Assembly: GCF_963514075.1 (NCBI RefSeq)
Contig: NC_083776.1
Span: forward strand, 18,758,415-18,822,414
DNA: 64,000 nt
Direction: 5' to 3'
Origin: Conger conger
Taxonomy: Eukaryota
Shown here: positions 10,259 through 62,202 of the stretch, piece after piece
Position numbering within the stretch: the first letter of the stretch is position 1
Layout of the letters: each line of letters starts with the position of its first letter
Program-made: the position numbers and the translations under genes
Notes under the pieces: generated by a model
Seen by the model: the letters and a program-made list of their open reading frames with translations, nothing else
Told to the model about the DNA's origin: nothing
The model's database searches: none

Positions 10259-10294
10259 CCACCATACAGTTTATCATGCACTGTACTGCATCCA

Positions 10295-10395: not shown

Positions 10396-10790
10396 ACGAT
10401 GTGTGAGGAATAAGAGTTCACACTGACTAGTGTGGGGAAGGCAGGCTAGATAACTCACTGAATAGTCACTAAGCCCCATATGTCGCTATACTATATGTGA
10501 GCTTGTTTGCCACAACCTAAGCTGTGGAACTCTAATAAAGACATGTGTGGTTGATAAAAAGTCACAAATATACTTGGTTTGGCTTAAATCTGTTTTAAGA
10601 CACACAGGAGACTGCACATGTCATGCTGAACTCATGCTGGGAAGTCATCCTAAGATATGCATAATTGTACCAATAGCAATAGTTTTACTTGGATCATGGA
10701 ACACAAATGGAAAGCTCTAGGATGATATGAGAAGCTCTAAAACATGATAAATATGCGTGAGGGCTTTTAAACACCCAGCCCCCGTTCTAC

Positions 10791-10955
10791 CTTGAAGACG
10801 GCGGCGGTGACGAAGATGGTCTCGCAGGTGAGAGGGAGGGTTTCGGTCCCAGTGTTCAGCCGCTCCTTCATCTCACGGCAGGCCTTCGCACTCGCTGAGC
10901 GCCGGAATATTCCGCGGGTGAACGGGCCCTCCCGGAAGAGAAACGCCAACATATC
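10791..10955 (-). CDS. arhgap20: arhgap20 exon j, first RhoGAP-domain exon (DMLAFLFREGPFTRGIFRRSASAKACREMKERLNTG...IFVTAAVFK). It contains the catalytic arginine finger (GIFRRS).
   Basis: The GIFR(R/Q)SAN...C.ELKE.LN.G motif is present. The acceptor ctctctctgtag| follows a roughly 140-nt polypyrimidine tract. Donor AAG|gtagaa. The exon is 165 bp and in frame. Confidence 0.85.
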
Positions 10956-11125
10956 CTACAGAGAGAGAGGGGGGAAGGGGGGAGGGAGTGAGAGAGAGGG
11001 AAAGGGAGAGGGGGAGGGAGCGAGAGAGAGGGACAGAGAGAGAGAGGGGGGGGAAAGGGAGAGGGGGTGGGAGCGAGAGAGAGGGAAAAAGAGTGAGTGA
11101 CTGACTGACTGACTGACTGACTATG
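10955..11125. repeat. Polypurine/polypyrimidine tract of about 140 nt (GAGAGGGA-like) followed by (CTGA)7.
   Basis: gagagagaggggggaaggggggagggagtgagagagagggaaaggg...gactgactgactgactgactgact. On the minus strand this forms the polypyrimidine tract directly 5' of the arhgap20 exon j acceptor at 10955. Confidence 0.85.
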
Positions 11126-12945: not shown

Positions 12946-13437
12946 TGTCACCCTTAATGTATTGTGGATTGTGAATCATTGAATTTAACTGAATAATGTG
13001 CCAATAAAGGTGTGTCAAAACTAAAATAATGAAACTCTTTGTCTTTCTCCCTCTCAATCTATCACCTCTCTTTTTCTGAATCCCTCTCTCCCTTATCCCT
13101 CTTTGCCCATCTCTTGTCTCTATCTCAAGAAGGTGCTTGCTAGCACTTTGAGATTGATGAGATAAGAAATACTTTATTAAACCCTGTGGTGTCATTTGTG
13201 ATTGTAATTTGTCCTCTGCATTGGACCCATCCTAGCTACTTAGGTGCAGTGGGCAGCCAGAGTGCAGCGCCCGGGGACAAACTCCAGCTCTGAGGCCAGC
13301 GCCATGGGCAAGGGCAACGGCAGGAGCACACCTAACCTGACACGCATGTTCACTCAATGAAAAGCGCATAATAAATGTGATATATTATTATTATTGTTTT
13401 TATCGTGATCTTGTGGGGGTGCAGTGCGGGGCCGTAC

Positions 13438-13611
13438 CCAGTATGGCCTGCTCCAGGGCCACGCGGCTGGGCTTCAGGATGAACTGGCACTGAGAGTCCA
13501 GAGGAGGCTGCTCCAGCAGGTCCCGAGGGCTGAGCGGCTCCTTGGCTCTCCCCGTCTGTGAGGCCTTCCCCCGGATGTGGCTCATTTTGATGCTGAAGGG
13601 GAACTCGTGCC
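13438..13611 (-). CDS. arhgap20: arhgap20 exon h (HEFPFSIKMSHIRGKASQTGRAKEPLSPRDLLEQPPLDSQCQFILKPSRVALEQAIL).
   Basis: It matches ARHGAP20 ..HEYPYGIKMSHLRD...MQCQFILKPSRLAAAQ. Acceptor cccctgaaag| and donor CTGG|gtacgg. The exon is 174 bp and its phase links the exons on either side (G+GG, G+AG). Confidence 0.8.
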
Positions 13612-13815
13612 CTTTCAGGGGTCAGAGGTCAAAGGTCAGTCATGTTTCAGTCACACTCGCCTTAAACAGCCCTTTGTTTTCAATGCAGCGTGCAGAGGTA
13701 GTGGTGCATTATGTTACGAGAGTCATTTCTATTCAAATAAAGATTTCAATTCACAAGAAGCTTAAGCTGCTAATAGGAAAAGGCTTATTTTTATTTCATG
13801 CTAAATGCTATTCAC

Positions 13816-13882
13816 CGATGAGAGGGTAGGGAGGGTCATCCTTTCGGGAGCTCACCCACAGCTGGTAGTCTTTCACACAGCC
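13816..13882 (-). CDS. arhgap20: arhgap20 exon g (GCVKDYQLWVSSRKDDPPYPLIG), the end of the RA-like region.
   Basis: It matches ARHGAP20 ..RDYQLWVNSGKEEAPYPLIG. Acceptor tgtcctgcacag| and donor ATCG|gtgaat. The exon is 67 bp. Confidence 0.8.
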
Positions 13883-13924
13883 CTGTGCAGGACAGACACA
13901 GACAGAAACATTAAACAGTGCCCC

Positions 13925-13931
13925 TGTGCAT

Positions 13932-13972
<41 letters not shown>

Positions 13973-14215
13973 TGTACACAAACACACATACACACACACA
14001 GACACACACACAACACACACGTACACACACATACATACATACACACACAACACACACGCACACACACATACATACATACACACACAACACACACGCACAC
14101 ACACATACATACACACAGACATACACATCCTTGCATGTGCACACACACAAATGTACAGGTGTGTGCGCACATATACACACATACTGTACACACACACGCA
14201 TGTTATATTGCCAAC
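13925..14215. repeat. Compound (CA)n / (CATA)n microsatellite in the arhgap20 intron.
   Basis: cacacacacacacacacacacacacacagacatgtacacaaacacacatacacacacacag... Confidence 0.9.
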
Positions 14216-14471
14216 TCAGCAAGGTGTGCTTGTTATGGTTGACTCAGTGACTGCTAGAAGCGTGAAGATTCCCACTCTGAATTCCCACTCCTTCTCAACT
14301 GGACAAGCAGCAAACACCTTCCAGACTATAGAGTAACACCAGTCCTGGCACCATTGTTCAGATGACTGTATTAGACCAGGCTTTCACAGAGTCTGCTGCT
14401 ACAGTTCAGTAATGAGGACCTGAACAGGGACTGGATCACGGTGTAAATAAGGCACACTGGGGTAAGCTTAC

Positions 14472-14549
14472 CACAACCCCAAACTGCCGCAGTGCAATGG
14501 CGATGACCTCTGTAGTGCAGTCTGATTGGCTGACCGTCAGGGTCTTGGC
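14472..14549 (-). CDS. arhgap20: arhgap20 exon f, Ras-association (RA) domain segment (AKTLTVSQSDCTTEVIAIALRQFGVV).
   Basis: It matches ARHGAP20 SKTITVMNSDTANEVINMSLPMLGI. Acceptor ttttcccccag| and donor GTG|gtaagc. The exon is 78 bp (26 codons). Confidence 0.75.
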
Positions 14550-14564
14550 CTGGGGGAAAACCAT

Positions 14565-14795
14565 ATTACATTACATTATTGGCATTTGGCAGACGCTCTT
14601 ATCCAGAGCGACATACAGTCGATTAGACTAAGCAGGAGACAATCCTCCCCTGGAGCAATGCAGGGTTAAGGGCCTTGCTCAAGGGCCCAACGGCTGTGCG
14701 GATCTTATTATGGCTACATTGGGATTCGAACCACCGACCTTGCGTGTCCCAGTCCTTTACCTTAACCACTATGCTACAGGCTGCCCGTTATGGCA
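14565..14795 (-). mobile_element. SINE family B, the most complete copy, inserted in the arhgap20 intron.
   Basis: It contains ggcagacgctcttatccagagcgacatacag...ggagcaatgcagggttaagggccttgctcaagggcccaac...gggattcgaaccaccgaccttgcgtgtcccagtcctttaccttaaccactatgctacaggctgccc. The tRNA-like head lies at the right end on the reverse strand. Confidence 0.75.
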
Positions 14796-17583: not shown

Positions 17584-18153
17584 GTGCCCAGGTCTATTAT
17601 AGTACAGTTGGGCCCAAGTGTTATACAGTGCAGGTGTTCACAGGTCCTATACAGTACAGGTGTTCACAGGTGTTATACAGTGCAGGTGTTCACAGGTCCT
17701 ATACAGTGCTGGTGTACACAGGTGTTCTACAGTGCAGGTGTTCACAGGTGTTGTGCAGTGCAGGTGTTTCCAGGTGTTATACAGTGCAGATGTTTCCAGG
17801 TCCTATACAGTGCAGGTGTTCACAGGTGTTGTGCAGTGCAGGTGTTCACAGGTGTTATACAGTGCAGGTGTTTCCAGGTGTTATACAGTGCAGATGTTTC
17901 CAGGTCCTATACAGTGCAGGTGTTCACAGGTGCTGTGCTGTGCAGTGCAGGTGTTCACAGGTGTTATACTGTGCAGGTGTTCACAGGTGTTATACAGTGC
18001 AGGTGTTTCCAGGTGTTATACAGTGCAGGTGTTCACAGATGTTGTGCAGTGCAGGTGTTTCCAGGTGTTATACAGTGCAGGTGTTCACAGGTGTTATACA
18101 GTGCAGGTGTTCACAGGTGTTGTGCAGTGCAGGTGTTTGCACGGCCTACCTGA
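17584..18153. repeat. Minisatellite of about 22 copies of a 26-bp unit (caggtgttcacaggtgttatacagtg) with a 13-bp sub-period.
   Basis: Visible periodicity with variants such as caggtgtttccaggtcctatacagtg. It explains the six-frame ORFs at 17584..18153, 17618..18571 and 17628..18347. It abuts the arhgap20 exon c donor at 18150. Confidence 0.9.
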
Positions 18154-18299
18154 AGGTTGCCACGCAGTTGCAGGTGGGCCAGCCCATGACGAAGCTCCTC
18201 TCTGGGTGCATGCTGCCCTCACACACCTCCTCCACACAGCTGGCCGTCCACACCTCACACACACGCACCTGGGCCTTCAGCTTGAAGTGCGTGGAGGAC
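18150..18299 (-). CDS. arhgap20: arhgap20 exon c, second half of the PH domain (SSTHFKLKAQVRVCEVWTASCVEEVCEGSMHPERSFVMGWPTCNCVATF).
   Basis: It matches ARHGAP20 ..KIKLTDMWTASCVDEVGEG.TNAMKSFVLGWPTVNFVATF. Acceptor cacgttcag| and donor TTCAG|gtaggc. The exon is 150 bp. The donor lies 3 bp from the 17584-18153 minisatellite. Confidence 0.8.
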
Positions 18300-18749
18300 C
18301 TGAACGTGACAGGGGACCGTTACACACCCTCAGAGCACTCCAAGTAGAAAAACACTTGCCTTTTTTGGGGGGTTATAGGGGAGTTGAAATGTATAAGGAA
18401 ACCCCTGCACACTACTCTTTAATGCTCCTCTTTATTGAGCTACATATACACAATGGTTTGGACTTCATCAGCTCTCAATCTGTCACAATGTCACACCATG
18501 TGAAATTTAACCCAGTAACATCTCTTTTTTTCCCCATAGACACAAGTGGACGGAACAAACAGCATTACTGAGCCCAACATTCATAATAACAGGGATCGAC
18601 CAGTTGACCCCAGAACCTTGTGAACAATAAAAAAATCACTGCAAAAAAAGGCTGCCTTATAAAGTCTTATAAAGACTTAAAATCTTATTTCTTCAAGAGT
18701 GCATTCGCACATGTCTCTCTCTGTCTCTCGCTCTCTGTGACAGACGTAC

Positions 18750-19128: not shown

Positions 19129-20384
19129 CTGAATCAGGTAATTTACAGGCACGCAGGGACTAAACCACCATTGTAGCGTACTGACAGATCTGCTTTAACA
19201 AGGTTACTCGTATCCGAGGACTTAGCATGTTAAATCCCTGTGTATATTTAGACTGATTATCCTTGATATTCAGAAGCTCTGATCAACATTGTGAGGCTCA
19301 GCTGGTTCTGGTACTGGTTCAAGTGCAGTAGTAGAGTCATTTAAAATGTTTAAGTGCTTAATATACTTATGCACCTGCAACACAGCGCAACGCAGGGTTA
19401 GCGTGGTAGCTATCAGCGGGGCAGGAGACATCCAATCAGAACCAAAAACAACACTGCTTATACCACATCAATCATTATCCCTGTGTGACATTATGCAACG
19501 ATGATCAAGGCAAGATCAATTAAGCACAGAAAAGTATTTGACAGATATACAACTATTATACAGTTATATGGAAAAGCATGGTGCCCCGAATTAAGTTATT
19601 GCAAGATTATGACATGATGTATAATATGAGGTTAGAGCATATAGTCAGGCTATCACATGAGGTTATAGCATACAGTTATGATATTATGTGTCGTTGTTTG
19701 TTAAAGAGCTTGTAGGCAATGCTCCATCTGCTCTACACATTTCAGGGAAGATGTCATCTCAGAAATGGGTCATTCGGGAAGAAAAATGTGTCCCTCCAGA
19801 CACAAACCAATTTTCAGAAAAAACAGCTCATAAGATAACTCCACAAACTGAACCAACATCTGTCAGCCGCAACGGTTTTCCCTGCAATCAAAGGGCTCTT
19901 CTGGAAGGTTCTGAATGACTTCATGGGAAGTCAAAGAGACCCTTCATCAGCTTAACAGCCATAATACATCCTGAATACCCCTCCGACAAGGTTGAAAAGG
20001 CAAACCAAGGGTATATATGGCTTCAGGAACAGGAGACCTCAATCTCAGCTATGGGTGGACTGCAGGGGGAAAAAAGGGCATTTTTCTGAAGAAGGAAGGA
20101 AATAATTTGAGGGCACTGTCCCTTCCTGTTTATGGACTGCACCATGACACGTCCCCACACACACGCTTCCAAGCGATAAAGGTCTAATCCCTGGGAGAAT
20201 TCCTTTTAAAACCACTGTTGATCAGAGAAACTGGTCCACAGTTAACCAGCAGAATCTGCACAAATTATAAAACTTGACCATTTTATTATGTATACTGTAC
20301 ACTAACTAATTAATCACTTGTTTTTTGGGGTTCATAATCACGACGAAACTACACCGCCTCACTAAATTATCCCACAAGCACACA

Positions 20385-20745
20385 CTGACACTCGCACCCA
20401 CACATGCTCACACACACAAACACACACACATATACAGCTCATACACACAAACACACACACATATACAGCGCATACACACAAACACACACATATACAGCGC
20501 ATACACACAAACACACACACATATACAGTGCATACACACAAACTCACGCACATATACAGCGCATACACACAAACACACACACATATACAGTGCATACACA
20601 CAGGAGCACGCACACACATACATACATTCATACATTCGCATACACACAAACACACACACATATATAGCGCATACACACAGGAGCACGCACACACATACAT
20701 ACATTTATACATACACACAAACACACACACCCCTTCATACAGTAG
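20385..20745. repeat. Compound CA-rich minisatellite (unit about 30 bp: acacacaaacacacacacatatacagcgcat).
   Basis: About 10 tandem units. The ORFs at 20325..20810, 20362..20730, 20404..20667, 20408..20704, 20528..20962 and 20628..20885 are translation artefacts of it. Confidence 0.9.
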
Positions 20746-22695: not shown

Positions 22696-23689
22696 AGCAA
22701 GCTCAGCACCCAAAAGCAAGCCATCTGAACCTTTATCCTAAGGCCATAAACAGCCCTCTCATTTTAATATCAGAAATGTATTTTTTACCAGAAACAGTGC
22801 ACTTCAGTCAAAGAACAGAGGTCGTTCAATTTCAGAGGTTAATCCAACACAATCGCAAATTAATCTCTATTTATCAGGCTCCCCTAGCCAAAAGAGAAGA
22901 GAAGCAGTGGCAATAAAAATAATCCTTCAAGATTATGTAACATATTAACAGACTTTGACAGGAAATTAATGCTCACAGCGCAGTACTATGTGGGTTATAA
23001 AGGTCCAGGCTCCAGTTACTTTAGCAGGGATTTGGGGGGTAAAAAAGATTCCAGAGAGAGACGGAGAGACAGAGTCGATGCCAGCAGGCAGCCAGGGGCG
23101 AGACAGGTCAGCAGTAATCTGAAAAGCACTTTAACGAGGCAAACACAGTCCAGACCGTCAGGTTTCTCCCATTGTGTACAGACCGCTGTGATTGATGGCC
23201 CAGAGACTCTGTGAGTACTGTCAGTCATCGTAAATCAGAAAGGAGACACGTCTTCCGAGTTTGCCTTAGGACAGAACGCTGGATGATTTACGGGGCCAGA
23301 CTTCCATGTGAACCATGCAACCAAAACAGGGAACTACCTACTTATGTATACACAGCGCTTTGCGGACTTAAAGCACGACATTATCCAGGAGACTCTACAC
23401 ATCACTCAACTTCAGATTTGAGATGCGCTGTAAGTAATAACTTTGGCCTCGGAGACTTTTATGTTCAACAACAGACAAACTTCAGAAGTCTGTCGGAAGC
23501 TTTGTCTTGGCAGATGCCGGCGATAGCAATGCGTGTAACCCCCACTGTAATTCTGTAATCGTCTGGATTCCGTAAAACTGGACAAATGCAGGGGTTACTT
23601 CAGGCGGGAAAGGCCTTTCAGAAAAAAAAAAAAAAAACTTTTAAAAGTTCCGAACAGACTCGGAAGCACAAAGCCACAGACGCCAGTCC

Positions 23690-24110
23690 CAATGCGGCAT
23701 CAGGAAATAACACGGCAATTACGCCGGGCCACTCCGAGGTCTGCGGCCGGACGAAGGGGTCACCATCTCCGCGGAGAAACGTCCCTACGCTTGGGCCTGA
23801 CGTGGCCGAGGAGATGGCGTCTCCCCACCCCCTCGTTAGCCGCGCCGCTCCGTGTTTACCGGGAGAGCGGCTGTGCTCCGGGAGAGCGGCTGGGCTCTGG
23901 AAGAGCGGCTGGGCTCCGGGAGAGCGGCTGGGCTCCGGAAGACTGCGGCCCTGCGACAGTGACGCGAGGACAGCTGGGGCGCGGGCCCAGTTCCGACGGA
24001 CCGCTGGGGGATAAACCCAATGCGCCATCCCGCCAACGGAAAGCAGGTCCCGTCACACAGCGCATTGTCAGACTAAGGAAAGTCCTGGCAGGTAATTGTC
24101 TGGTTGTTTG
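23690..24110. promoter_or_regulatory. CpG-island-like segment, a candidate promoter or 5' exon. A strong plus-strand splice donor lies at 24092 (GGCAG|gtaatt).
   Basis: CpG dinucleotides are very dense (gccgggcc, ccgcggag, cgcgccgctccg, ggcgcgggcc) against an otherwise CpG-depleted background. An Arg/Gly/Pro-rich ORF at 23692..24129 ends exactly at the donor, so it is probably 5' UTR or a low-complexity exon. Confidence 0.35.
23868..23945. repeat. 19-bp tandem repeat x 4 (gggagagcggctgggctcc) inside a CpG-rich segment.
   Basis: ccgggagagcggctgtgctccgggagagcggctgggctctggaagagcggctgggctccgggagagcggctgggctccgg. Confidence 0.85.
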
Positions 24111-28217: not shown

Positions 28218-29099
28218 GTCTCCTCTGCCCATTCTGCATCACCGTCACTTCAATGAACCTCTGAATGCTCTAGTCCAGCAAAAGCACACTGCGCCTCTTT
28301 TGTCCCCGATTGGGTAACAGTAACCATACTGTCCAGCTTTCATACACCCCTTTACGGCGCTTCTTAATCGTTTTTTTCTTTTCACTTTCAATAAACGATT
28401 GTTTTAAGATACTGTTGCAATGAGAAACAAATACATATATAGGCAATGCACTGTTTGCAGCAGCAGTTATATATGGAAGAGCTGAGTCGTTTTTGAAAGC
28501 GATACCCAGGGCCACGGTATTCAGGCTAGACATCGTCCTGAAGGTAAAGCATCGTTTTCGTTTGCTCGTTGTAAGCAATCTGTTTATTGAAAAGGGGACG
28601 ACTACCTAACTACAGGTGACTGCGCTTTAGTAGGCTATGCCCCCTAACTGTAGGAATCTACGGTCTACAAAGAAAGTTGAAAGTCGCCAAGACAATTTAT
28701 TTCCTAAATCAAAGTTTAATTTTCCTATATGATCGCCAACAACATTACAGATTCAAATAGCATTTTGAAGTGTAGTCAGCATTCTTAGACGCTCAATTTT
28801 AGGTATATGGCTACGCGTCCAGTACAAAACGGAGTTGATTCTGCAGCAACGAATGAAGTGGTTATCTAGCCCACATCATGTCGTTATCTTATTAAAGGAT
28901 GCCGATGCAAGGGTTCTCTTTGAATCTGATGCATTCCTTTAGGGTAGACTCTGTCAGATATACGCATATCATTTTCTACAGTTACTGGTCTGAGTAAATA
29001 TTACCTGCAAATAACACAGTGTTATACATTAAACAGTGAAATGCTAATACTAAATTATGCAGCATTGTGACAATTACGCAAATATCCAGCATACATATA

Positions 29100-29900
29100 T
29101 ATATATTACATTATCGTCGGCTCAGGCTAACGACGCTCAAATACAACCAGGAGACAAACTTTTCCGCGTACCTTTTTGTTCTCAGGTAAGGAACAGATCT
29201 TGGCTTCTCCTGTCAAAGATGCAGACCGACTCTGACCAGAATTCTCCTGCTTGGGTGACATGGTTTCCATTAAAGCTGATATACCCAAGATAATTCGAGA
29301 CACCGTGCGCGCTTATTTCCACAACCATCCAAAATGTCAAGCCACAAAAAAATCACAAAACAGTCAGGAGCTGTCGGAATCTTCGTTTAATTGGGACATT
29401 TCGGACGCGCAGCCAGTCCCGTGTAGCTGCAGCAGCGACCACTGTAAATAAGTGCAAGTGCAGCGTCCTTTTAGTCCCAGTTTGACGATGAGAGAGACCA
29501 GCTGTCTACGCTGCCTTCCGCATCCCGCTCGTTACTCGCACTGAATGACTACGCAGGCTGTGCTCCTTCTCTCGCTTACAGCGACAGAGGAATGCGCCTC
29601 AGCGATTCGCAGCAGGCACAGGTTTCTATAATGACGCCCTCGTCGGGTCGTATTTGGAGCGCTGTTCCAATTTCAATTTTAGTCTTCAGATTAGCTGGAG
29701 GAGTCAAAATAAACAGAACTCACCCCAGATAATTCCTCACGATTTATCCACCTATGACATATGGTTTCTGTGCCAACATTTATCGGCAACGTTTGATTTA
29801 CCGTGGCGTTTTTGTACGAGTTCTGTGATTCCCAATGCAATTACATTATGTTCAATTTAGCATAATACGGATTTTCCGGCATATGCTTATTCTAAAATAT
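29100..29900. promoter_or_regulatory. CpG-rich segment with a TATA-like run (tatatatatatt, 29095-29108) and a consensus plus-strand donor CTCAG|gtaagg (exon end 29185). It is a candidate first exon of an unannotated plus-strand transcript.
   Basis: Local CpG enrichment (cgtcggctc, cgacgctc, ccgcgtacc, gtgcgcgc, tcggacgcgcagcc, ccgcatcccgctcgttactcgc, gacgccctcgtcgggtcg). A second acceptor/donor pair lies at ctccttctctcgcttacag|CGACAG...GGCACAG|gtttct (29575-29620). Confidence 0.3.
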
Positions 29901-30564
29901 ATATGTCTACTGAATCCTTCTCAAGTGCAATATTCTATTGTTCGACTGGTGAATGTAATCTATTGTGCACAAAGTGGGAATTAGGCTTCACGTGTCACGA
30001 GACAAATAGTGAATCCAATAAAACCGAATCCAAACAAAATTCACAGAAATGACCCTGTGGACAGAAGTGAAAACAAACAATACTGACACTAGAAAGCGTT
30101 TTACTCAAGCTAAATATTATGAAGGCATGAACAAATTACTTACGGGACTATGACTCTGGGATATAAAACAACAAGTATAAACATAGTGACAGATTCACTC
30201 AGGGTTATTGAAAAGCAATAAGCTCAAATGGACTGAAAGTCCTGTTCTTGTTATTACACGTTTTCAAATTCTTTTTTGTACTTGTCTCATTTCAAAGAGT
30301 TTAAAGATAAATATTTATACGGTTGAGCCCGTGTTCAACTCTAGCCTTTCATAAACTTCTCTTCTTGTCCTGGATAGACTGAAGGGCAGACTTACAGCAG
30401 CTTCCAGTTAAGATGTACTACAATAGGAAAGAATGTGAAATAGACTTGGCTAGCGCCGCACCTATCTTTCACAACAGGCAAAAACAAGCACCACCGCACC
30501 AAAGACAGTGACCCGAGACATTTGCACGAAGAGGGGGACGTGTTGCTGTCTTCATAACATGGGC

Positions 30565-30790
30565 CATTAGATATATGGGCTCTTACCGCTCAGGAGGTAA
30601 GAGCGGTCGTCTGGCAGTTGGAGGTTTGGCGGTTCGATCCCGCCCTGGGCGAAGTGATACTGAGCAAGACATCTAACCCACAAATGCTCCTGACGAGCTG
30701 GTTCGTGCCTTGCATGGCAACCAATCGCTGTTCGTGTGTGAATGGGTGAATGAGAAGCATCAATGCACATCTAAATTTAAGGAATCTTTA
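30565..30790 (-). mobile_element. SINE family A copy in reverse orientation. The tRNA-like head is visible (box B ggttcgatccc).
   Basis: The reverse complement contains ..ggttgccatgcaaggcacgaaccagctcgtcaggagcatttgtgggttagatgtcttgctcagtatcacttcgcccagggcgggatcgaaccgcc.. Confidence 0.7.
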
Positions 30791-31384
30791 CTTATCCAGA
30801 TAAAGCTAATTGTACTTTTGGAAGATAAGAATTAGTTTGGTGAAATAAGTGAGAGTACATTTGTCAGGTAGTTTTACAGACCATAGCCTGATCATTAACA
30901 AGTAAAACATGTTGTTCCTGTGGGGTTATGTTTAGCTCCATTGCTGCACCCAAAATTCTAGACATACCCTGAATTTATTCAGTAAATATTTGCTTCTGTA
31001 AATGGATAATTATATGCAATGTGGTTCTCGGAAAAACAACAAGAAAGGAAATGAGGACAAAGTAAAAACATATCATAAAAAGTCACAATTTATTTTGTGA
31101 AATGCTGATAGTATTTTACAACTGAAATGAGTTACAGGTTTGTTATGAATTCAAGTACTCAGTAATAAGCAGCAATGGTCGTAGGTAGCCGGGTGATTGG
31201 CCAGCCGACAGCCCCTATCGTTCTGTACGGCTGTGGAACAGCTCATAGCTGCCAACAATTACGAGCATTTCACTGTTGGGTGGGCCATCCAAGAACTACC
31301 ACTGCCTTGCCAGATAGTTTTTCCCCATTTTTGCATTTAAGAACAATTTTATGCATTCACTAAACTTACTGTAGGAGCAGTAAA

Positions 31385-33510: not shown

Positions 33511-34789
33511 GATATCTGCTAGAGGGAATAGACAATGGGCTCCCACTAGCATTTATATTCCACAGAATTCCTACATCTGGGATGACCTCACTAGCCCTTC
33601 TCCTGCAGCTGTGGATGGGGTGACATCATCATGACGGGATTCCGTGTTTGTCACGGTAACAAGACGGCAATAGTATGTAAAGGTAAAGTTATTATGCCAA
33701 ATATATTATTACAGGAATCCTCAACAGGCAGCGAGACTAGCCAGTGACCTCGAGATGGAGGGAGAGAAACAGGAATGAGCGATGAATCAGAAGGAATACA
33801 GCCAGGGTCAGCAGACATTTTGCGGCTGTCCAGAGCGGGGGCCCTAGCAGTATATATGTACACATCTCTGTGAATGGCCAACATTCTGCAGATCCTCAGT
33901 ACAGAGAAGTCCTACAGGTAACCTACAGAAAGGTTAATTGGCTCCAGATAATGATTAGCTTAACGGTTATGTAGGGCAGACCCTGCTGGATCTGCAGGAT
34001 GCTGAGCTGTCATACAGAGTGTGTGTACATCTCCTCCGTGGTGGGGGAAGGGAGGGGGAATGGGGCTTCCTGGGGTTACAGTGCACTCTGGGAAATAAAG
34101 GTAAGAACAGTGCCTAAAATGCCGGTACTCTATGGTACATAAAATTGTACCCCTAGCAATATATAATTAATTTGGACCTTCTTTTGCTTGGAAAATGTAC
34201 TCATGTGTACCCAAGGAGAACATTACTGCACTTTAACGGTACATTTGGGAAATCCTTGAAGAACAACAAATGTACCTCCACTGTCACTTCATTACTGAGT
34301 GTGCTGTGTCCATCGCTCCCCTGTTTACTCCCGCCCTTTCTCCTTCTTCCCCCCCGTTTTCTTCCTCTTCCTCCTCTTTCTCTCCTAAGGTGAGCTCCAG
34401 ACACCTGTCAGATGGGATTTCTCCAATTTAACCCCCCACCCCCACCCCCCTGCTCACCATCACTTCCTGCCAGTACCCGTAATGATGACACAGTCTGAGC
34501 ACTCCCCCACTAAAGCTCCTGTGATTTCATTAAGCCCCAAACAAAGGACTGCTGTGCCTGCTGGAATGTGTTGATGAGCCCTCCCCCCAGGCCTGCAGTA
34601 CCTGGAGCTGTGTGACATCTCTACCTATACCGAGACAGACAGAGAAGTGCTCCAGACAGACACACTTCTGAGAGGGACATGAAATTGCTGCATGTTTTCA
34701 GCATTGCGCAACTTGCGTGTCAGACGCATGCGAATCCATCAAAATACAAAAAGACCTGTCTTTTTTCTTTGTTCGGTACAGCATGTGTG

Positions 34790-34835
34790 TACAGTATGTG
34801 TGTGTGTGTGTGTGTGATAGAGAGCATGTGTGTAC

Positions 34836-34872
<37 letters not shown>

Positions 34873-34890
34873 TAGAGAGCATGTGTGTAC

Positions 34891-34922
<32 letters not shown>

Positions 34923-34941
34923 ATAGAGAGCATGTGTGTAC

Positions 34942-34975
<34 letters not shown>

Positions 34976-35086
34976 TGTGAGATAGAGAGCATGTATGTAC
35001 ACTTTGTGTGTGTGTGAGATAGAGAGCATGTGTGTACTATATGTGTGTGTGTGTGTGTGTGTGCGCGATAGAGAGCATGTGTGTAC

Positions 35087-35123
<37 letters not shown>

Positions 35124-35141
35124 TAGAGAGCATGTGTGTAC

Positions 35142-35178
<37 letters not shown>

Positions 35179-35546
35179 TAGAGAGCATGTGTGTACTGTA
35201 TGTGTGTGTGTGTGTGTGTGAGATAGAGAGCATGTATGTACTGTATGTGTGTGTGTGTGATAGAGAGCATGTGTGTACTGTATGTGTGTGTGTGTGTGTG
35301 TGTGTGAGATAGAGAGCATGTATGTACACTTTGTGTGTGTGTGAGATAGAGAGCATGTGTGTACTGTATGTGTGTGTGTGTGTGTGTGTGCGATAGAGAG
35401 CATGTGTGTACTGTATGTGTGTGTGTGTGTGTGTGTGTGTGATAGAGAGCATGTGTGTACTGTATGTGTGTGTGGGTGTGTGTGTGAGATAGAGAGCATG
35501 TATGTACACTTTGTGTGTGTGTGTGAGATAGAGAGCATGTGTGTAC

Positions 35547-35581
<35 letters not shown>

Positions 35582-35648
35582 TAGAGAGCATGTGTGTACT
35601 GTATGTGTGTGTGTGTGTGTGTGTGTGTGATAGAGAGCATGTGTGTAC

Positions 35649-35683
<35 letters not shown>

Positions 35684-35922
35684 TAGAGAGCATGTGTGTA
35701 CTGTATGTGTGTGTGTGTGTGTGTGTGAGATAGAGAGCATGTATGTACTGTATGTGTGTGTGTGTGATAGAGAGCATGTGTGTACTGTATGTGTGTGTGT
35801 GTGTGTGTGTGTGTGAGATAGAGAGCATGTATGTACACTTTGTGTGTGTGTGAGATAGAGAGCATGTGTGTACTGTATGTGTGTGTGTGTGTGTGTGTGT
35901 GCGATAGAGAGCATGTGTGTAC

Positions 35923-35954
<32 letters not shown>

Positions 35955-35973
35955 ATAGAGAGCATGTGTGTAC

Positions 35974-36016
<43 letters not shown>

Positions 36017-36360
36017 TAGAGAGCATGTGTGTACTGTATGTGTGTGTGTGTGTGTGTGTGTGTGATAGAGAGCATGTGTGTACTGTATGTGTGTGTGTGT
36101 GTGTGTGTGAGATAGAGAGCATGTATGTACACTTTGTGTGTGTGTGAGATAGAGAGCATGTGTGTACTATGTGTGTGTGTGTGTGCGCGCGCGATAGAGA
36201 GCATGTGTGTACTATATGTGTGTGTGTGTGTGTGCGCGATAGAGAGCATGTGTGTACTATATGTGTGTGTGTGCGCGCGCGATAGAGAGCATGTGTGTAC
36301 TATATGTGTGTGTGTGTGTGTGTGTGTGATAGAGAGCATGTGTGCACTGTATGTGTGTGT
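34790..36360. repeat. About 1.6-kb compound minisatellite of roughly 30 units (45-62 bp each). Each unit is gatagagagcatgtgtgtactgtat followed by (GT)8-18.
   Basis: Regular recurrence of gatagagagcatgtgtgtactgtatgtgtgtgtgtgtgtg, with variants gagatagagagcatgtatgtacactttgtg and gcgatagagagc. It explains the 575-aa ORF at 34720..36447 and the other His/Thr/Cys/Val ORFs here. Confidence 0.95.
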
Positions 36361-36642
36361 ATCTCTAAGGCTTATGAGCTGTAATAATATCCCCATGCTT
36401 TGAAGGTGGGTGTAATTACAGGGTCTTCCGCTGAGAGACAGGTTCATTGTCCATGTGCTCCTGTGACCCAGGCCCCCTCAGAATACCCCTTAGTGAGCGA
36501 GAAACGATGTCCACATTCACAGGGAGCGCGACTCCAGAGATCGGACAGATAAAACATTCCCTCGGAAAACAGCTTTCCCCTCCACACTCCCGGCATCCGC
36601 CAAGACGAGCAAGCAGCTGCTCAACACCTCAGACCCAGTATA

Positions 36643-37035
36643 TCCATGACTACTGTTACCTCACAGTACATCCATGACTACTGTTACCTCACAGTACATC
36701 CATGACTACTGTTACCTCACAGTACATCCATGACTACTGTTACCTCACAGTACATCCATGACTACTGTTACCTCAAAGTACATCCATGACTACTGTTACC
36801 TCACAGTACATCCATGACTACTGTTACCTCACAGTACATCCATGACTACTGTTACCTCACATTACATCCATGACTACTGTTACCTCACAGTACATCCATG
36901 ACTACTGTTACCTCACAGTACATCCATGACTACTGTTACCTCACATTACATCCATGACTACTGTTACCTCACAGTACATCCATGACTACTGTTACCTCAC
37001 ATTACATCCATGACTACTGTTACCTCACATTACAT
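36643..37035. repeat. Minisatellite of about 14 copies of a 28-bp unit (acagtacatccatgactactgttacctc).
   Basis: Near-perfect tandem copies with occasional acagta to acatta or aaagta variants. Confidence 0.95.
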
Positions 37036-37479
37036 CCTATTTAGCATACTAACAAAGAAGTGCATACCAAGGTCCTCAGAAGAAACTGTAGAACAGGTTG
37101 GATAAGGTAGAATTCATGTAGAATCAGTTGTACAGCGGGGAACATTATGTCTAGTACACATAGTTCTCTTTCTGTGTCTATTCCTGGTTAATTAGGTATT
37201 GCATCTGCTGCAGATCCATAGTTATCTGCACACACATACCACAGGCCAGTGTACATGAATTAAGTTATTAACACACTGACACTGACAATCTTTTCCTTTC
37301 TCACATTTTATATATCTCTTATTTAGTCTTTTTCCACAGCTCTTTGCCATCACTATATAGTGTACATCATGCAGGCTGCCACCGTACAACTCTGACTAGA
37401 AGCTTCTGCAAAGGCTAATTAACACACTTATGAAGAGAACTCAATAGATGATCATTTCAGAGACATGCAAGGCTTTTTG

Positions 37480-43525: not shown

Positions 43526-43867
43526 ATAAAATCAAATAACTAATTATTATCATAACCTGACAAACATTTCTTTCAGTAAACAGAGGTGGAAATGTAATGT
43601 CAACCCCTGCCATTAATTATATTAATTCACATGAATTAACATGTTAATCATGTCAGAGCTCGCAACCCCATCCACACACCTATCCACTTATTTTGCAATT
43701 CTGAACACAATGTTGCGGTGGAAAATTAGATCAGATCCTGCCATGAAAAGTTTCTAGTACAGTATGCATGAGAAAATAACATACCCTGGAGAAGTCCTTC
43801 CGTTACTAAGGCTACATAACAGTTGTCTGAAGAATATTCCCGGCTATCTGTGTCCTGACCCTTCTGG

Positions 43868-43905
43868 GTGTGTGTGTGTGAGGTAGAGAACATGTGTGTA
43901 CTGTA

Positions 43906-43958
<53 letters not shown>

Positions 43959-43962
43959 ATAT
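43868..43962. repeat. (GT)n-(GA)n compound microsatellite plus one isolated copy of the 35-kb minisatellite motif (gaggtagagaacatgtgtgtactgtatgtg).
   Basis: gtgtgtgtgtgaggtagagaacatgtgtgtactgtatgtgtgtgtgtgtgtgtgtgagagagagagagagagagagagagac. Confidence 0.85.
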
Positions 43963-44574
43963 CCCCTGCTATCTGTGTCCTGGCCCTTTTGGGTGTGTTG
44001 CCATTTTAGTAATGAAATATGAACCGTTTCATTAATTCCCCACGCTTGCTGAACTTGAAGACTCAGTCGCGTAAGCCCAATGTTTTCTTTTACTCCAGAG
44101 AATCCAAGAATCTGGAATAATACACCAACATTAGTTTTCATCATTTTTGTTTTATTATCAGTCATAACTGATATACTGCCAGAAGTATCGAAAGGCGGTT
44201 GTTTGGGTTCATCCAGCGACCTTTATATCCCAACACTGAGCCAAATCATTCGACACAATCTGGCGTATCTTGTTGTGATTTCTGCCTGTTTCTTATGGAC
44301 TGATAAATAGAGTATGACGTTATATGTGTAGAGGGACTGTTAGTGCTCTTGCCTAATTTAAGTCAGTGGTTACAGCTGCTCGTTGTTTTTAGCAGTAACT
44401 GGACAGATACTGTATGTTAGTTTTATACGTCCTTTGTAGCATATTTTTATGGCACATTTTCTTTTCTCCAGAATTTGTAATTGGAGGCCGATGTCATTGC
44501 TGTGAACTCCTCAGTGAAGTGAGGAGAGCATAGACAAGCACCTGTTCTACTGCGCTGCACGGGCAGGTGGTGCA

Positions 44575-47475: not shown

Positions 47476-48654
47476 CCATAATGCAATGTAATGCTTCAGC
47501 GCCATCAGAGGTGGTTCAAGTTTGGCAGACCTTCCCCCCTCCTCATTGACTATACCCCAGCTTAACCCTGGAGCCTACATGAGAACCCAAAGATCCTCCC
47601 AGGGCTTTGAGCGGGTCCATTCAGTCCCACTGGTGCAACGCTGCTCCTGGGAATTTCCCCCTGCTCCCGAATCGTGGAATGTTGCGGAGAAACAAACTCA
47701 GAGGCAATGAGGTCATGAGGAGACTTGACTTCTGTCTCCCGGGCGGAGGGAAAGCTGCGTCCGCACACACTGAATAAGGTTACTCTGTTTCACACAGAGC
47801 TGCTGAGGCCAAGCATTTCACACAAATTCCACGAGTAGATGTCAGCGTTTTTTACTTCCCGCTGTTTGCGAGAGACTGACGCTTCGCTCCCATAAATCTT
47901 CTGAAGTAAAACAGTGAAACGGAGCCTGACTCGGCATTAAAAGCAAATTTAAAAAATCATTTTACTTCACAGCTCAGGATAATGATACAGCAAAAAAAAT
48001 ATGAACTATAAATTGCAGTTTGCTGTTAGTTGAACTTCCCCTGAGTGTGTGGCTCTTAGGACCGAACCAAAGGTACAGTTCATGTCAACACCTACACTGA
48101 CTTCACAGATCATTTTTAATTACTTTTACCAACTAATCAGACCAGATCAATACTGACACTACATCAAAGCCTTTATAATACCTTGTTAAATTAAATAATC
48201 GGGTGGTGCTAATGTTTTTTTTGTGTTTTCTGACATACCTTAATTGAAAAAAATCCCCTAATTATTATTAATGACAGTGTGTGACATTATAATAAATGTC
48301 AGCAGTTCTTCCAAGAGAAATGGGCGACGGCTTTTTTGAAGTCGGCATTAAATTCAGAGCTCTGGCAGATGCAGGAGTTTTAGTTGTCTAATTAGGCGGT
48401 TAGCTTGCCAAACATGGTAATGAACACACAAGCTCTTCTGTTGGATGCATGCGGCTCGTACAGATCCTGTCAGGGCAAGGGGACATCTCATGTTTTACTG
48501 CGATTTATTTGTTTTACATTCCTCAAAGCTGGGTGGCATGCAGCCATTTTCTTTTTTTTGCACTTGTCTGTCAGTTTTCGCTGGAGCGTTTGTGAAGAGA
48601 TGATAACTTCCAGCCCTGCCTGTGTTAATGCGGAGGCCCCAAACATGTCCATGA

Positions 48655-48920
48655 CCATCATCTCCAGCACCCAAACGACCAGACCAACCAGATCCCATAC
48701 CCAACCACCATCTCCAGCACCTCAACAACCAGACCCCATACCCAACCACCATCTCCAGCACCCAAGCAACCAGCAGAACAACCAGACCCCTTACCCAAAC
48801 ACCATCTCCAGCACCCCAACAACCAGACCCCATACCCAACCACCATCTCCAGCACCCCAACAACCAGACCCCATACCCAACCACCATCTCCAGCACCCAA
48901 ACAACGAGAACCATTATTAA
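48655..48920. repeat. Tandem repeat of about 6 copies of a roughly 41-bp unit (ccaccatctccagcacccaaacaaccagaccccatacccaa).
   Basis: Periodic ...caaccaccatctccagcacc(c/t)caacaaccagaccccatacc.... The 171-aa ORF at 48405..48920 (PTS/Q-rich) runs through it. Confidence 0.85.
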
Positions 48921-56570: not shown

Positions 56571-56574
<4 letters not shown>

Positions 56575-56603
<29 letters not shown>

Positions 56604-56677
56604 TGTGTCTTTGTGAGAGCATACTGTGTGTCTGTGCATGTGTAAGAGAGAGATAGAGAGCATACTGTTTGTCTGCG

Positions 56678-56720
<43 letters not shown>

Positions 56721-56880
56721 GAGCATTCTGTGTGTGTGAGCACACTGTTCGCATGTGTGTGTATGAGCATACGGTGTGCACGTGTTTGCGTGTGTGTGAG
56801 CATACTCTGTGTCTGTGCGTGTGTGTGTGAGAGAGCTTACGGTGTTTGCATGTGTGTGTGAACATACTGCATGTGCGTGT
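56575..56880. repeat. GT/GA-rich compound repeat with a roughly 45-bp unit (gagcatactgtgtgtctgtgcgtgtgtg..).
   Basis: gtgtgtgtgtgtgtgtgtgtgtgtggtgtgtctttgtgagagcatactgtgtgtctgtgcatgtgtaagagagagatagagagcatactg... Confidence 0.85.
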
Positions 56881-59084
56881 GTGTGTTTGTGTAGGTATGT
56901 ATTATTATTAAAATATTGGTCATAATTCAGCCTTTAAATTGATAACCGTGTTTATGAAGAGAAGATCATTTCTGAGATTGTTCTGCAGAAAGGGGTGATG
57001 GAGAGTGTACTTGAGCATTTGGGGTCAAGGCTTGCTCTTTTAATTTCATCTCACTGCTGATTCATGATCATTCCATGAAGGAATACACCATGCCAAAGCT
57101 TTTATAACAGCCTGCTCTGGAGTGTTGAATTAACCTGGTCACAATGGCAACATTATTCAAACTGAAATAAATGCAAGGTATGCAAGGTAAAGAGTTTGCC
57201 CATTAGAGTTCCCTTACAGGCTGGGCAGTCTAATAGCCTGGGACTGCAGGAAGAACTAAGAGCCAGAATTCCCACTGGATTTTCCATTGGTTTCCCTGAA
57301 GCTCTCCACATAGAATGTCCCTGTGCATGTCGCAAAACAGTTACAGTGGGGGAGGGGGGTATATCACAAAACATGAATACTGGAGTGAGTTAGCTGGATA
57401 ACTATGCTGAGCAAAACCCAGAACAGCTCTATTTACTTCAGCCCATGTTCCAGGTTTATGAGGGTTCCGGATTTTACAGTTATCCAGTTAACTCAGTATC
57501 CTGCTTTGTGAAACAGGACCTGGGACCCGAAAAGGACAGGGCTTGGACAGCCTGACATCACCGATTACCCGAGGACCAGTAACTAAATCATTCAGCAAAG
57601 GCAACACGCGCACTGCACTTTGTGTACCTGTCAGACAGCAAGAGCCATCATTCTTTCTTGTGCTTAGAGCAACCAAAAGCCTCACACACATACAAAAAAC
57701 AGCAAAATAAAATCCATGTTAAAAATCAGACATGACTGACCCCGTTTTACTGCTTGTGTTGCCTGTATGAGGTCATTGTTCTGCTTTCAGTTTGGGGCAT
57801 CTTTTTGTCTACCTTTTTAAGACCAATGTTCAGCTTCTAGCTAAACGCGAAATGACCCAGATGGGACCGCATCAGGATGTGGAATAAACATTGCTAATAA
57901 ACATCAGGCCGCTGTTTTCTGTGCTTTCGACATGCAGCCTTCATTTCCTGACCAGTGACTCCGCTAAACAATGGCAGCAGGACCACATTTAGGCCTGCTA
58001 TTGATCTTACACGGTTTACTGTAGCAGGAGATTAAGCTCAATTATACCCCTGCGTGCGTGAGCAGTCAAAATCAACCCATTCTTCATGGGTGCTGCTGGG
58101 GAACAATCCAGCAGGAGGTTAAAGTGTCAGGTGTTCAGTGTGACGAATGGACCAGCCCCATTCACCAGGGTTAATCATTGCTAAATCAGGCCTCGGTGTT
58201 GAATCAGGATGCAAGTCCTATTCCGCGTTACCTCCTCCCATTCCTAACTTTATTAAAGGGCAGTCTATATACTGCCTGCTATTGAGCTGACAGTCCAATG
58301 ACTCTGGGTTATTTCTGATTTTAAAAACTATACAAACACCAGTTAATTATTAAGCATTCTGCCCTTCAAATAAATGTGTACTGGGTGCTGTACGGCTGAC
58401 CTATATGCAATTTCCTATTAATAACTATTAATATCTTACAGAGACTGTAAATTCCTGTACAGTCTAAATGGAATAGCTAACTTCTGTGCTCATAAATATC
58501 ATTGAATAGCAGCTTGGCAGAGGTGTCAACATTGTTTAACCTGTGTAGATATGCAGAGCCCCAAGGTACGGGAACAATACGGGGTTTAAACTTTCACAGG
58601 TCTGCAGGTCTCTAACATGTCCCCTTGTTCCAGGAACAGTCAAAATATTCCAAACATTCTTGCTCTGTTTTGGAAAGCATAATTAATGCCTTTTTAAAAT
58701 ACTGGAATTCCTGGAAACATTGGATTTTATAAACTTGCACGTGGATAACCGGAGGTCAGTGTGGCCTTGGTGCAGACAGCTTTTGAGATGCTCAGGATGA
58801 GAAAAGGATACACCAATGGAGAAACTGTTTTACCAGACCTAGTCATTGAACGGAATATATTTCACCAAAAAGAATGAATGAAAGTTAATGAGAGCAGCAA
58901 TATTAATATGACTATTAATTGTTTTTATCAAATGAAAGGGGCACATCAGGCACCTACATTCAGACAGAGAGCAGAGGCCCAGAATGTGGCAGAAGTCTCA
59001 CATGGACATCACTCCTGCCAAATAAAAAACATTAAAGCAACACTCAAATATTTATAGTGTGACTCAGGACAGGGTGCGTTCTGA

Positions 59085-60565: not shown

Positions 60566-60608
60566 CAGCAGAACCAGACACTCGACCAGTTTTTTAAGGC
60601 AAATCATA

Positions 60609-62202
60609 CAGTGGGAGCAATAATTATTTGATCCCTTGCTGATTTTGTAGGTTTGCCACCTTACAAATAATGGAACTGTGTAGAATTTTAATCATTTTAA
60701 CATTGAGAGACAGAATATCACAAAATAATCCACAATAACAACATCATATAAATTTTATAAATTTATTATCGTATTTTTGCATGAAATAAGTATTTGATCC
60801 CCTACCAATCAGCAATAATTCTGGCTCCCACAGACCAGTTAGTTTTCCATTAAGCACTCCTACTCTCCACTCATTACCCAAAACACCTGTGTCAACTCGT
60901 TACATTGTTATGTAGTTGTATAAAAGACACCTGTCCACACAATCAATCAGATTCCAACGTTCCACCATGGCCAAGACAAAGGAGCTGTCTAAGGACATCA
61001 GGGACAAAATTGTAGACCTGCACAAGGCTGGGATGGGCTACAAGAAAATAAGCAAGCAGCTTGGTGAGAAGTTAACAACTGTTGGAGCAATTATTAGAAA
61101 ATGGAAGAAACACAAAGTCACCGCCAATCTCCCTTGGTCTGGGGCTCCACGCAAGATCTCGCCTCGTGGGATATCAATGATCATGAGAAAGGTCAGGGAT
61201 CAGCCCAGTACTACACAGGAAGAGCTTGTTAATGACCTGAAGGCAGTTGGGACCACAGTCATGAAGAGAACCATCAGTAACACATTACACCATGAAGGAT
61301 TAAAATCCTGCTGCACGCGCAAGGTTCCTCTGCTGAAGAAGGCACATGTACAGGCCTGTCTGAAGTTTGCCAAAGAACACCTGGATGATCCAGAAGAGGC
61401 TTGGGAGAAGGTGATGTGGTCAGATGAGACCAAAATAGAGATATTTGGCATCAACTCAACTCGCCGTGTTTGGAGGAAGAGAAATGCTGAGTACAACCCC
61501 AAGAACACCATTGCCACTGTGAAGCATGGAGGTGGAAACCTTATGCTTTGGGGGTGTTTCTCAGCTAAGAGGACAGGACGACTTCACCGTATCGAGGGGA
61601 GGATGACTGGGGCCATGTACCAGGAACTTTTGGGCAACAACCTCGTTCCCTCAGTGAGAGCACTGAAAATGCGTCGTGGATGGGTCTTCCAACATGACAA
61701 TGACCCAAAACATACGGCCAAGGCAACAAAGGAGTGGCTCAAAAAGAAGCATATTAAGGTCCTGGAGTGGCCTAGCCAGTCTCCAGACCTAAATCCCATC
61801 GAAAATCTGTGGAGGGAGCTGAAGCTTCGAGTTGCCAAGCGACAGCCTCAGAACCTTAAGGATTTGGAGAGGATCTGCAAAGAGGAGTGGACCAAAATCC
61901 CTCCCAAGATCTGTGCAAACCTGGTGAAAAACTACAACAAACGTCTGACCTCTGTGCTTGCCAACAAAGGTTTCTCCACCAAGTATTAAGTCCTATTGTT
62001 CTATGGATCAAATACTTATTTCATGTGAAAATATGATATAAAATTGATCAAATTTATATCATGTTATTGTGGATTATTTTGTGATATTCTGTCTCTCAAT
62101 GTTAAAATGTACCTATGATTAAAATTCTACACAGTTCCATTCTTTGTAAGTGGGCAAACCTACAAAATCAGCAAGGGATCAAATAATTATTGCTCCCACT
62201 TC
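60609..62202 (+). mobile_element. Tc1/mariner (Tc1-like, Sleeping-Beauty-type) DNA transposon. It is full length at about 1.6 kb, has roughly 200-bp near-identical terminal inverted repeats, and has an intact transposase ORF.
   Basis: The left end is TA|CAGTGGGAGCAATAATTATTTGATCCCTTGCTGATTTTGTAGGTTTGCCAC.... The right end is ...GTGGGCAAACCTACAAAATCAGCAAGGGATCAAATAATTATTGCTCCCACttc. About 200 bp at each end are mutually reverse-complementary with few mismatches. The last 3 nt of the right terminus (TTC instead of TGTA) deviate from consensus. Confidence 0.85.
60967..61989 (+). CDS. Tc1-like transposase of 340 aa ([32 protein letters not shown]...). It carries a DD(34)E catalytic triad and paired-like HTH and GRPR-like motifs.
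   Basis: The ORF is uninterrupted. The DDE residues are DETKIE (first D), QHDNDPKH (second D) and [11 protein letters not shown] (E). The length equals the 340-aa SB/Tc1 transposases, and an NLS-like KWKKHK is present. The six-frame track extends the ORF to an upstream ATG at 60916, but MAKTKE at 60967 matches the family start. Confidence 0.85.

Follow-up and report, generated by a model that had tools for sequence, protein, structure and literature searches.

A block of tandem-repeat DNA lies beside the exons of an ARHGAP20 homologue in a 64,000-nucleotide stretch of the Conger conger genome (NCBI RefSeq assembly GCF_963514075.1, contig NC_083776.1, positions 18,758,415 to 18,822,414, forward strand; hereafter the window, in whose own numbering coordinates are given). 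The block is made of a GT-anchored array (array A), a unique spacer and a 28-bp minisatellite (array B). We believe that it is, in all likelihood, neutral non-coding tandem-repeat DNA, and that array A is a nested tandem repeat with a superimposed higher-order layer which would have been built by unequal exchange between its GT tracts. An earlier reading of the letters alone, referred to here as the original prediction, had described the region as a composite hyper-repetitive block and had proposed that its repeat unit is mobile or derived from a microsatellite-seeding short interspersed nuclear element (SINE) or miniature inverted-repeat transposable element (MITE). Its coordinates and copy counts proved essentially right and its interpretation is partly supported overall, the mobile-element origin being the part that our analysis does not support.

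Anatomy of the GT-anchored array and its higher-order period

Array A occupies positions 34781-36361 on the forward strand (1,581 bp) and comprises 34 units, of which 33 are anchored and the first is truncated, in line with the roughly 30 units first counted. Each unit consists of a 25-bp anchor, GATAGAGAGCATGTGTGTACTGTAT, followed by (GT)4-18, and the units, which are 33-61 bp long, owe their differences in length mainly to the GT tract. For the longest uninterrupted GT run of each unit, the median is 10 repeats and the range 4-18, so that the upper end of the (GT)8-18 range originally proposed holds and its lower end is too high. The core ATAGAGAGCATGT is present 33 times in the array, and the full anchor is matched 28 times between 34816 and 36352 when up to three mismatches are allowed, against none expected from dinucleotide-preserving shuffles. 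Tandem Repeats Finder (TRF) shows the array only as period 2 plus period 49, the latter with 73% matches and 16% indels.

The units are not uniform. Besides the standard form we found GTATGTAC, ACACTTT and ACTATAT variants, GT tracts interrupted by GGG, and tracts ending in GAG or CGCG. Divergence is greatest at the edges of the array: the truncated leading unit (34781-34816), AGCATGTGTGTACAGTAT(GT)9G, carries ACAGTAT and is slightly different from the rest, the degenerate terminal unit (36329-36361) carries GTGCAC, and a run of ACTATAT/(CG)n-type units fills 36149-36328 at the 3' end. Read as dinucleotides the anchor is GA-TA-GA-GA-GC-AT-GT-GT-GT-AC-TG-TA-T, itself a mutated, degenerate (GA)n(GT)n sequence. 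Moreover, 69 alternating purine/pyrimidine runs of at least 12 nt cover 1,303 of the 1,581 bases of array A (82%), the longest reaching 42 nt. By this measure the array would be prone to adopt Z-DNA, for which (GT/AC)n is the classical case, and the corresponding claim of the original prediction stands at the level of sequence only.

The order of the variant units reveals a second level of organization. When units were assigned to classes by anchor variant and by tract interruptions and ends, ignoring GT number, array A read AABCDAAEFECGABCHAAEFECGAAAECIDJKL, in which the units recur with a period of 11 (about 515 bp), in two full copies plus partials. The first copy spans units 3-13 (BCDAAEFECGA; 34923-35441, forward strand, 519 bp), its first unit having a GGG-interrupted GT tract, and the second spans units 14-24 (BCHAAEFECGA; 35442-35954, forward strand, 513 bp). 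Units 1-2 and units 25-29 represent partial further copies, the latter falling in the segment 35955-36361 (forward strand), which includes two extra standard units and the 3' end of the array. The sub-variant GAGATAGAGAGCATGTATGTACACTTT follows the same layout. It had been described as occurring every 4-6 units, and its five occurrences, in units 4, 11, 15, 22 and 28, are instead spaced by 7, 4, 7 and 6 units; the alternation of 7 and 4 arises because ACACTTT occurs twice in each higher-order copy.

Statistical tests at the level of units support this period. Class identity between units is found in 11 of 22 comparisons at lag 11 versus at most five at any of the remaining lags between 1 and 19. 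When the unit order was permuted, 74 of 100,000 permutations reached 11 class matches at any lag, and none of 20,000 contained an exact repeated run of eight classes. Units 11 positions apart have a mean edit distance of 6.1, as compared with 8.5-10.9 at the other lags from 1 to 16. In addition, autocorrelation of the array with all GT tracts collapsed to one length gives a peak of 0.689 at 387 bp, which corresponds to 11 units, next to 0.714 at one unit; raw ungapped autocorrelation gives only diffuse peaks near 509-513 and 887. Class matches, permutations and collapsed autocorrelation thus bear out the higher-order repeat that had been proposed from inspection.

TRF did not report this period. 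With the maximum period set to 2000 the program returned periods of 2, 49 and 51 only for array A, and on the GT-collapsed array it returned a period of 33 (33.7 copies, 85% matches) and again no 11-unit period. We attribute the miss of the approximately 515-bp period to the variable tract lengths, which hide it. The original prediction had named TRF as the check on its claim, with the lack of any period beyond the simple unit to be taken as evidence against it; that check indeed returned no long period, whereas the unit-level analysis shows that the period is real. As a refutation criterion the TRF output is unreliable here and would have yielded a false negative, and it follows that TRF alone overlooks higher-order structure where the monomers contain variable microsatellites.

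The two full copies are nearly identical apart from the length of their GT tracts. Their alignment contains 498 matches, a single substitution among 499 aligned bases (C at 35064, T at 35577, inside a CpG) and 34 gap columns, all of which are whole GT dinucleotides distributed across 9 of the 11 tracts. The identity between blocks is far above that between neighbouring monomers, and array A therefore qualifies as a higher-order repeat. We believe that the duplication of the 11-unit block is recent, because the copies differ by only one substitution. The instability of GT tracts that had been suspected is directly visible in this pair, which offers an internal comparison of mutation modes: one CpG substitution versus a change of length in 9 of 11 tracts.

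How such an array might have come about can be outlined from standard tandem-repeat biology, in which short repeats give rise to longer units by duplication and divergence and higher-order repeats stem from the joint amplification of adjacent monomers (PMC5615363). On this basis we infer in what order the events took place and by what kind of exchange. At the start, point mutations in an imperfect compound (GT)n(GA)n microsatellite would have made the 25-bp anchor. Out-of-register pairing of the flanking GT tracts, whether in replication slippage, in unequal exchange between sister chromatids or homologues, or in gene conversion, could then have multiplied the anchor together with its (GT)n tract as a 33-61-bp unit. 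Variant units of the kinds listed above would have arisen next, after which a block of 11 adjacent units may have been duplicated whole to produce the higher-order repeat. Since then, the GT tracts would have kept slipping while the edges of the array decayed.

The neighbouring minisatellite and the 575-residue reading frame

Array B, a 28-bp minisatellite with the unit CAGTACATCCATGACTACTGTTACCTCA, lies at 36636-37037 on the forward strand. It extends over 0.40 kb and contains 14.4 copies at 97% matches, in good agreement with the 14 copies originally counted. No regular higher-order pattern was seen in array B, in which a CATTAC variant occurs at copies 9, 12, 14 and 15. Both arrays fit the definition of minisatellites as units of 10-100 bp in euchromatic arrays of about 0.1 to several kb (PMC5615363), here beside the exons of ARHGAP20.

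The description of the region as a composite block is accurate in that two arrays are adjacent; it does not hold in the sense of a single repeat, given that 274 bp of unique DNA (36362-36635) separates them. Elsewhere in the window this spacer has no copy, and it resembles neither of the flanks. We considered whether the two arrays are linked and ruled this out, as their units share no sequence and close adjacency of repeats is common in the window: TRF reports 28 separate arrays that make up 7.8% of the sequence, and 8 of the 27 gaps between neighbouring arrays are 500 bp or less. Because the window is so rich in tandem repeats, two arrays 274 bp apart need no special explanation, and array B is an independent minisatellite that is near array A by happenstance.

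Array A also gives rise to a 575-aa open reading frame (ORF) on the minus strand (34720-36447), a His/Thr-rich translation of the (AC)n strand that had already been judged artefactual. Our results agree with that judgement. The translation contains no Pfam family, and a search of a 5.8-billion-protein collection (the Logan, ENA and NCBI ORF sets) returned seven weak, generic H/T low-complexity matches; none of the five of these that were examined contains peptides of the anchor, which is weak negative evidence. Moreover, overlapping ORFs leave all three minus-strand frames open across array A, because the AC strand of tract and anchor has no stop codons, so that no frame is preferred. We therefore rejected the protein-coding reading on the basis of the missing Pfam family, the purely low-complexity matches and the three open frames. 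Array A is in this respect a trap for assemblers and ORF callers, the 575-aa phantom protein being an example.

Further copies of the unit and alternative explanations

A solitary unit related to array A, originally placed at 43868-43960, is present on the forward strand at 43865-43949, where it reads (GT)6 GAG GTAGAGAACATGTGTGTACTGTAT (GT)10 running into (GA)16. Its anchor (43882-43906) is identical to the array A consensus at 23 of 25 positions, and its local alignment score of 21 is above that of all 5,000 controls, which were (GA)5(GT)8 sequences with 25% random substitution. The homology with array A ends at the unit itself. The unit is flanked by a 43-nt direct repeat, with a left copy at 43831-43873 and a right copy at 43956-43998 (both forward strand), which are 91% identical and lie 125 bp apart from start to start; their divergence (4 of 43 positions) is similar to that of the solitary anchor from array A (2 of 25). 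This arrangement could be a partial tandem duplication of 125 bp, equivalent to a proto-minisatellite of 1.3 copies, or else an insertion of 82 bp that duplicated 43 bp of its target, which would be unusually long.

Other arrays resemble array A in build. One is a degenerate GT/GA-anchored array at 56573-56892 (forward strand), maybe related, which contains at 56653 the motif ATAGAGAGCATACTGT, corresponding to the anchor minus an internal GTGTGT; its alignment score to the anchor is 13, a value reached by 8.5% of the (GA)5(GT)8 controls. Several GAGCATAC motifs are also found in this array. A further AC-anchored array with variable units (periods of 31, 60 and 77 bp) lies on the CA strand at 20379-20730, inside an ARHGAP20 intron. 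Nested GT repeats thus recur in this region.

They are also found in the arrowtooth eel, Synaphobranchus kaupii, in which an array of the same build, (GT)n GAGAGAGTATGTATGTTAGTGCAT (GT)n with more than 20 units, lies near ARHGAP20, at 13278-13949 and 14506-14700 of a 37-kb locus (L002, CM056380.1). Its TRF periods are 38-46 bp plus 80, 100 and 114 bp, it falls within the annotated range of the ARHGAP20 gene and has the same orientation relative to the gene, and its similarity to the anchor is within chance, being reached by the same 8.5% of controls. The S. kaupii locus is collinear with the window over 1586-11086 only, and the region upstream of ARHGAP20 falls outside this comparison. We also observed in this locus a roughly 190-bp near-perfect, MITE-like palindrome (14200-14390) between the two GT-anchored blocks, as well as a minisatellite of 95 17-bp copies at 28912-30591. 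Both GT-anchored blocks (13278/14495) share the end sequence GTGTGTGACTCTACTCCAGTTGGCAGAGGGACACT, which indicates that a segmental duplication of about 1.2 kb includes them both.

The architecture of array A is, then, common in eel-like genomes. Homology of the anchor with the 56.6-kb, 20.4-kb and S. kaupii arrays was rejected, as the likeness cannot be told apart from what converging degenerate (GA)n(GT)n sequences would give; convergent evolution of the flanks of (AC)n repeats has been documented (Vowles & Amos, 2004, PMC509290). Only the 43.9-kb unit is treated here as a demonstrated second copy, for which the sequence match makes a convincing case.

Four points weigh against the purely local and neutral history that we favour. 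First, there is the convincing second copy at a distance of 7.5 kb, at 43.9 kb, with its flanking 43-nt direct repeat, which means that purely local slippage is insufficient and that ectopic copying or an older duplication is needed. Second, another GT-anchored array contains, at 56653, an exact copy of the 11-mer ATAGAGAGCAT, the sole one within the window outside array A. Third, a dispersed family is possible, as the copy counts for anchor, spacer and 28-mer cover the 64-kb window. Fourth, a (GT)n-rich block that precedes the first recognised coding exon of a gene by about 5.5 kb could, judging from its composition, influence chromatin or transcription.

The first three of these points bear on the idea that the unit or the block is part of an element that is mobile or seeds microsatellites, for instance a SINE, a MITE, a Helitron or the tail of a long interspersed nuclear element (LINE), with the array being an expanded internal repeat. 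The close match of the solitary anchor, which no low-complexity control equalled, is consistent with it, as is the recurrence of ATAGAGAGCAT...ACTGT on the same strand at 56653; the window does contain transposons (a Tc1 element and an UnaL2 tail), the solitary unit has a (GA)16 tail, and its 43-nt direct repeat can be read as a long target-site duplication (TSD). A 43-bp TSD is, however, far beyond the usual range of DNA transposons and SINEs. Around the block itself, terminal inverted repeats and TSDs were considered and rejected: no terminal inverted repeats were found to bracket it, and its flanks show no TSD-like similarity, with flank-versus-flank alignment scores equal to those of shuffles, whereas the flanks of the 43.9-kb unit, which served as a positive control in the same alignment, scored 33 against a shuffle maximum of 10. 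ARAGORN found no tRNA-like sequence in the whole window, and no Rfam family was found at the repeat block. Within the window the left flank, the spacer and the 28-mer have no second copies, the homology of the solitary unit stops where the unit ends, and the likeness of the 56.6-kb and S. kaupii anchors is at the level reached by controls. In addition, the protein search with the 575-aa ORF gave no ORF with anchor words among the five matches examined, and exact-pattern scans of metagenome contigs with the anchor and with the 28-mer gave 0 matches each, in a collection that is not expected to hold fish DNA. Taken together, the lack of terminal inverted repeats, a TSD, a tRNA-like head, an Rfam match and shared flanks at the block makes a mobile-element origin unlikely, and on this point we depart from the original prediction.

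A related idea accounts for the solitary unit alone. If the anchored unit could be copied to ectopic sites, the 43.9-kb unit would be a templated insertion or a retro-copy from the array, made either by template switching primed by GT tracts during break repair or by LINE-mediated copying with a long staggered cut at the target. We consider this improbable. Were it true, array A would be a source that seeds nearby GT-anchored repeats, perhaps including the 56.6-kb array.

It is also quite unlikely, in our estimation, that the block functions as a cis-element for ARHGAP20 or for a gene nearby, in which Z-DNA or nucleosome exclusion tunes transcription or which acts as a recombination hotspot. 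The position upstream of the gene, the extent of alternating purine/pyrimidine sequence described above and the presence of a GT-anchored array in the same relative orientation within the S. kaupii ARHGAP20 range speak for such an element. Against this, no CpG-island or promoter-like features were found at the block, the window's CpG-island-like segments all lying elsewhere; the S. kaupii array is not demonstrably orthologous in position, as collinearity ends at 11086, and its anchor similarity is within chance; and the rapid turnover seen in array A argues against constraint on its sequence. A cis-regulatory role is in any case compatible with a neutral origin of the block.

Finally, we give very little credence to the higher-order duplication, or the length of the array as a whole, being an assembly artefact caused by a mis-expanded repeat: assemblies are prone to error where long, nearly identical repeats contain dinucleotide tracts, and our analysis used the assembled sequence, but the two copies differ in the length of nine tracts, in each case by entire GT dinucleotides, as well as by one substitution, and so look like the product of biological divergence rather than a duplicated consensus.

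We therefore return to the reading of the block as neutral tandem-repeat DNA, under which it is an ordinary member of a known repeat class with one loose end, the solitary unit and its 43-nt flanking duplication. Its biological weight is small, as it adds one more hypervariable tandem repeat to a repeat-rich fish genome. Array A is, however, likely to be a very polymorphic marker beside ARHGAP20.

Genomic setting and comparison with known systems

Using tblastn with fish ARHGAP20 proteins, we mapped at least 12 coding exons of the ARHGAP20 homologue on the minus strand, between 29261 and 4492. Of the coding exons that can be recognised, the one farthest upstream is at 29172-29261, about 5.5 kb from the repeat block, which places the block either in the 5' flanking DNA of ARHGAP20 or in a 5' intron. 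The large terminal exon corresponds to a 577-aa ORF at 4489-6222 (minus strand), for which the nearest named protein is from S. kaupii (58% at the amino-acid level) and the best match overall reaches 83%; the relationship to S. kaupii marks the host as an eel-like teleost. Several CpG-island-like windows are present, for example at 23.6-24.0 kb, at 42.2 kb and over ARHGAP20 exons. The strongest such segment (23600-24100; GC 0.63, CpG observed/expected 0.85-1.0) lies between the exons at about 25.0 and 18.9 kb, contains a 19-bp repeat of 4.4 copies (23859-23942) and may be an internal or alternative promoter.

Further repeats lie close to the exons of the gene. A 26-bp minisatellite (17618-18137; 19.8 copies, 84% matches) begins 14 bp from the exon at 18152-18301, at the very start of the downstream intron and beside the splice donor, and likewise yields artefactual ORFs in three frames, the longest of 317 aa. 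The sole Rfam family in the window is an UnaL2 LINE 3' element on the minus strand at 14576-14629 (60.5 bits, E=1.6e-9), 27 bp from the exon at 14472-14549; UnaL2 was first described in eel, and similar sequence is present at about 30915-30964 of the S. kaupii locus. Farther away, a Tc1/Sleeping-Beauty-type transposon at 60601-62209 is apparently intact. Its terminal inverted repeats of roughly 200 bp (60601-60800 and 62005-62209) are 86-100% complementary, and its transposase ORF (60916-61989) is uninterrupted, encodes 357 aa if translation starts at a TTG or 341 aa if it starts at the first ATG, and contains HTH_SB, HTH_Tnp_Tc3_2 and DDE_3 domains. A tandem repeat with periods of 41 and 94 bp (48654-48909) lies within a P/Q/T/H-rich ORF of 171 aa (48405-48920, plus strand) that has no Pfam family and is either an exon or another artefact.

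Among known systems, microsatellite-carrying SINEs and MITEs, reportedly including DANA of zebrafish and mini-me of Drosophila, resemble our case in that a motif which is not itself a microsatellite recurs together with GT tracts at more than one locus. They differ from it in having terminal repeats, an RNA polymerase III head, short TSDs or a shared non-repeat body, none of which was found at the block. A closer likeness exists to compound or interrupted (GT)n microsatellites with 'cryptically simple' flanks, which display the same kind of mutated (GA)n(GT)n sequence as the anchor and for which convergence is possible (PMC509290); unlike in these, the interruption and the tract of array A have together become the repeating unit.

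The higher-order layer is comparable to that of satellite DNA such as primate alpha satellite, in which adjacent diverged monomers are likewise amplified as one block and blocks are more alike than neighbouring monomers (PMC5615363). The scale is very different, as array A comprises about 2.5 higher-order copies within 1.6 kb of euchromatin by a gene, with monomers of 33-61 bp, whereas alpha satellite forms megabase centromeric arrays of 171-bp monomers. With respect to its basic plan, array A has the form of the nested or variable-length tandem repeats described previously (Hauth & Joseph, 2002; Matroud, Hendy & Tuffley, 2012, NTRFinder, PMC3273788), which are defined as x^s0 X x^s1 X ..., with n>1, s_i>=1 and some s_j>=2 (PMC3273788). 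With GT as x and the 25-bp anchor as X, all three defining features are present, namely alternating motifs, varying s_i and an X that is itself in tandem, and the tandem repetition is approximate for the x tracts as well as for the X copies. The published examples, such as that in the intergenic spacer of taro ribosomal DNA, have a longer x, whereas x is a dinucleotide in array A. Array A further departs from these examples in that its X is in turn a degenerate microsatellite and in that an 11-unit layer is superimposed on the nested repeat.

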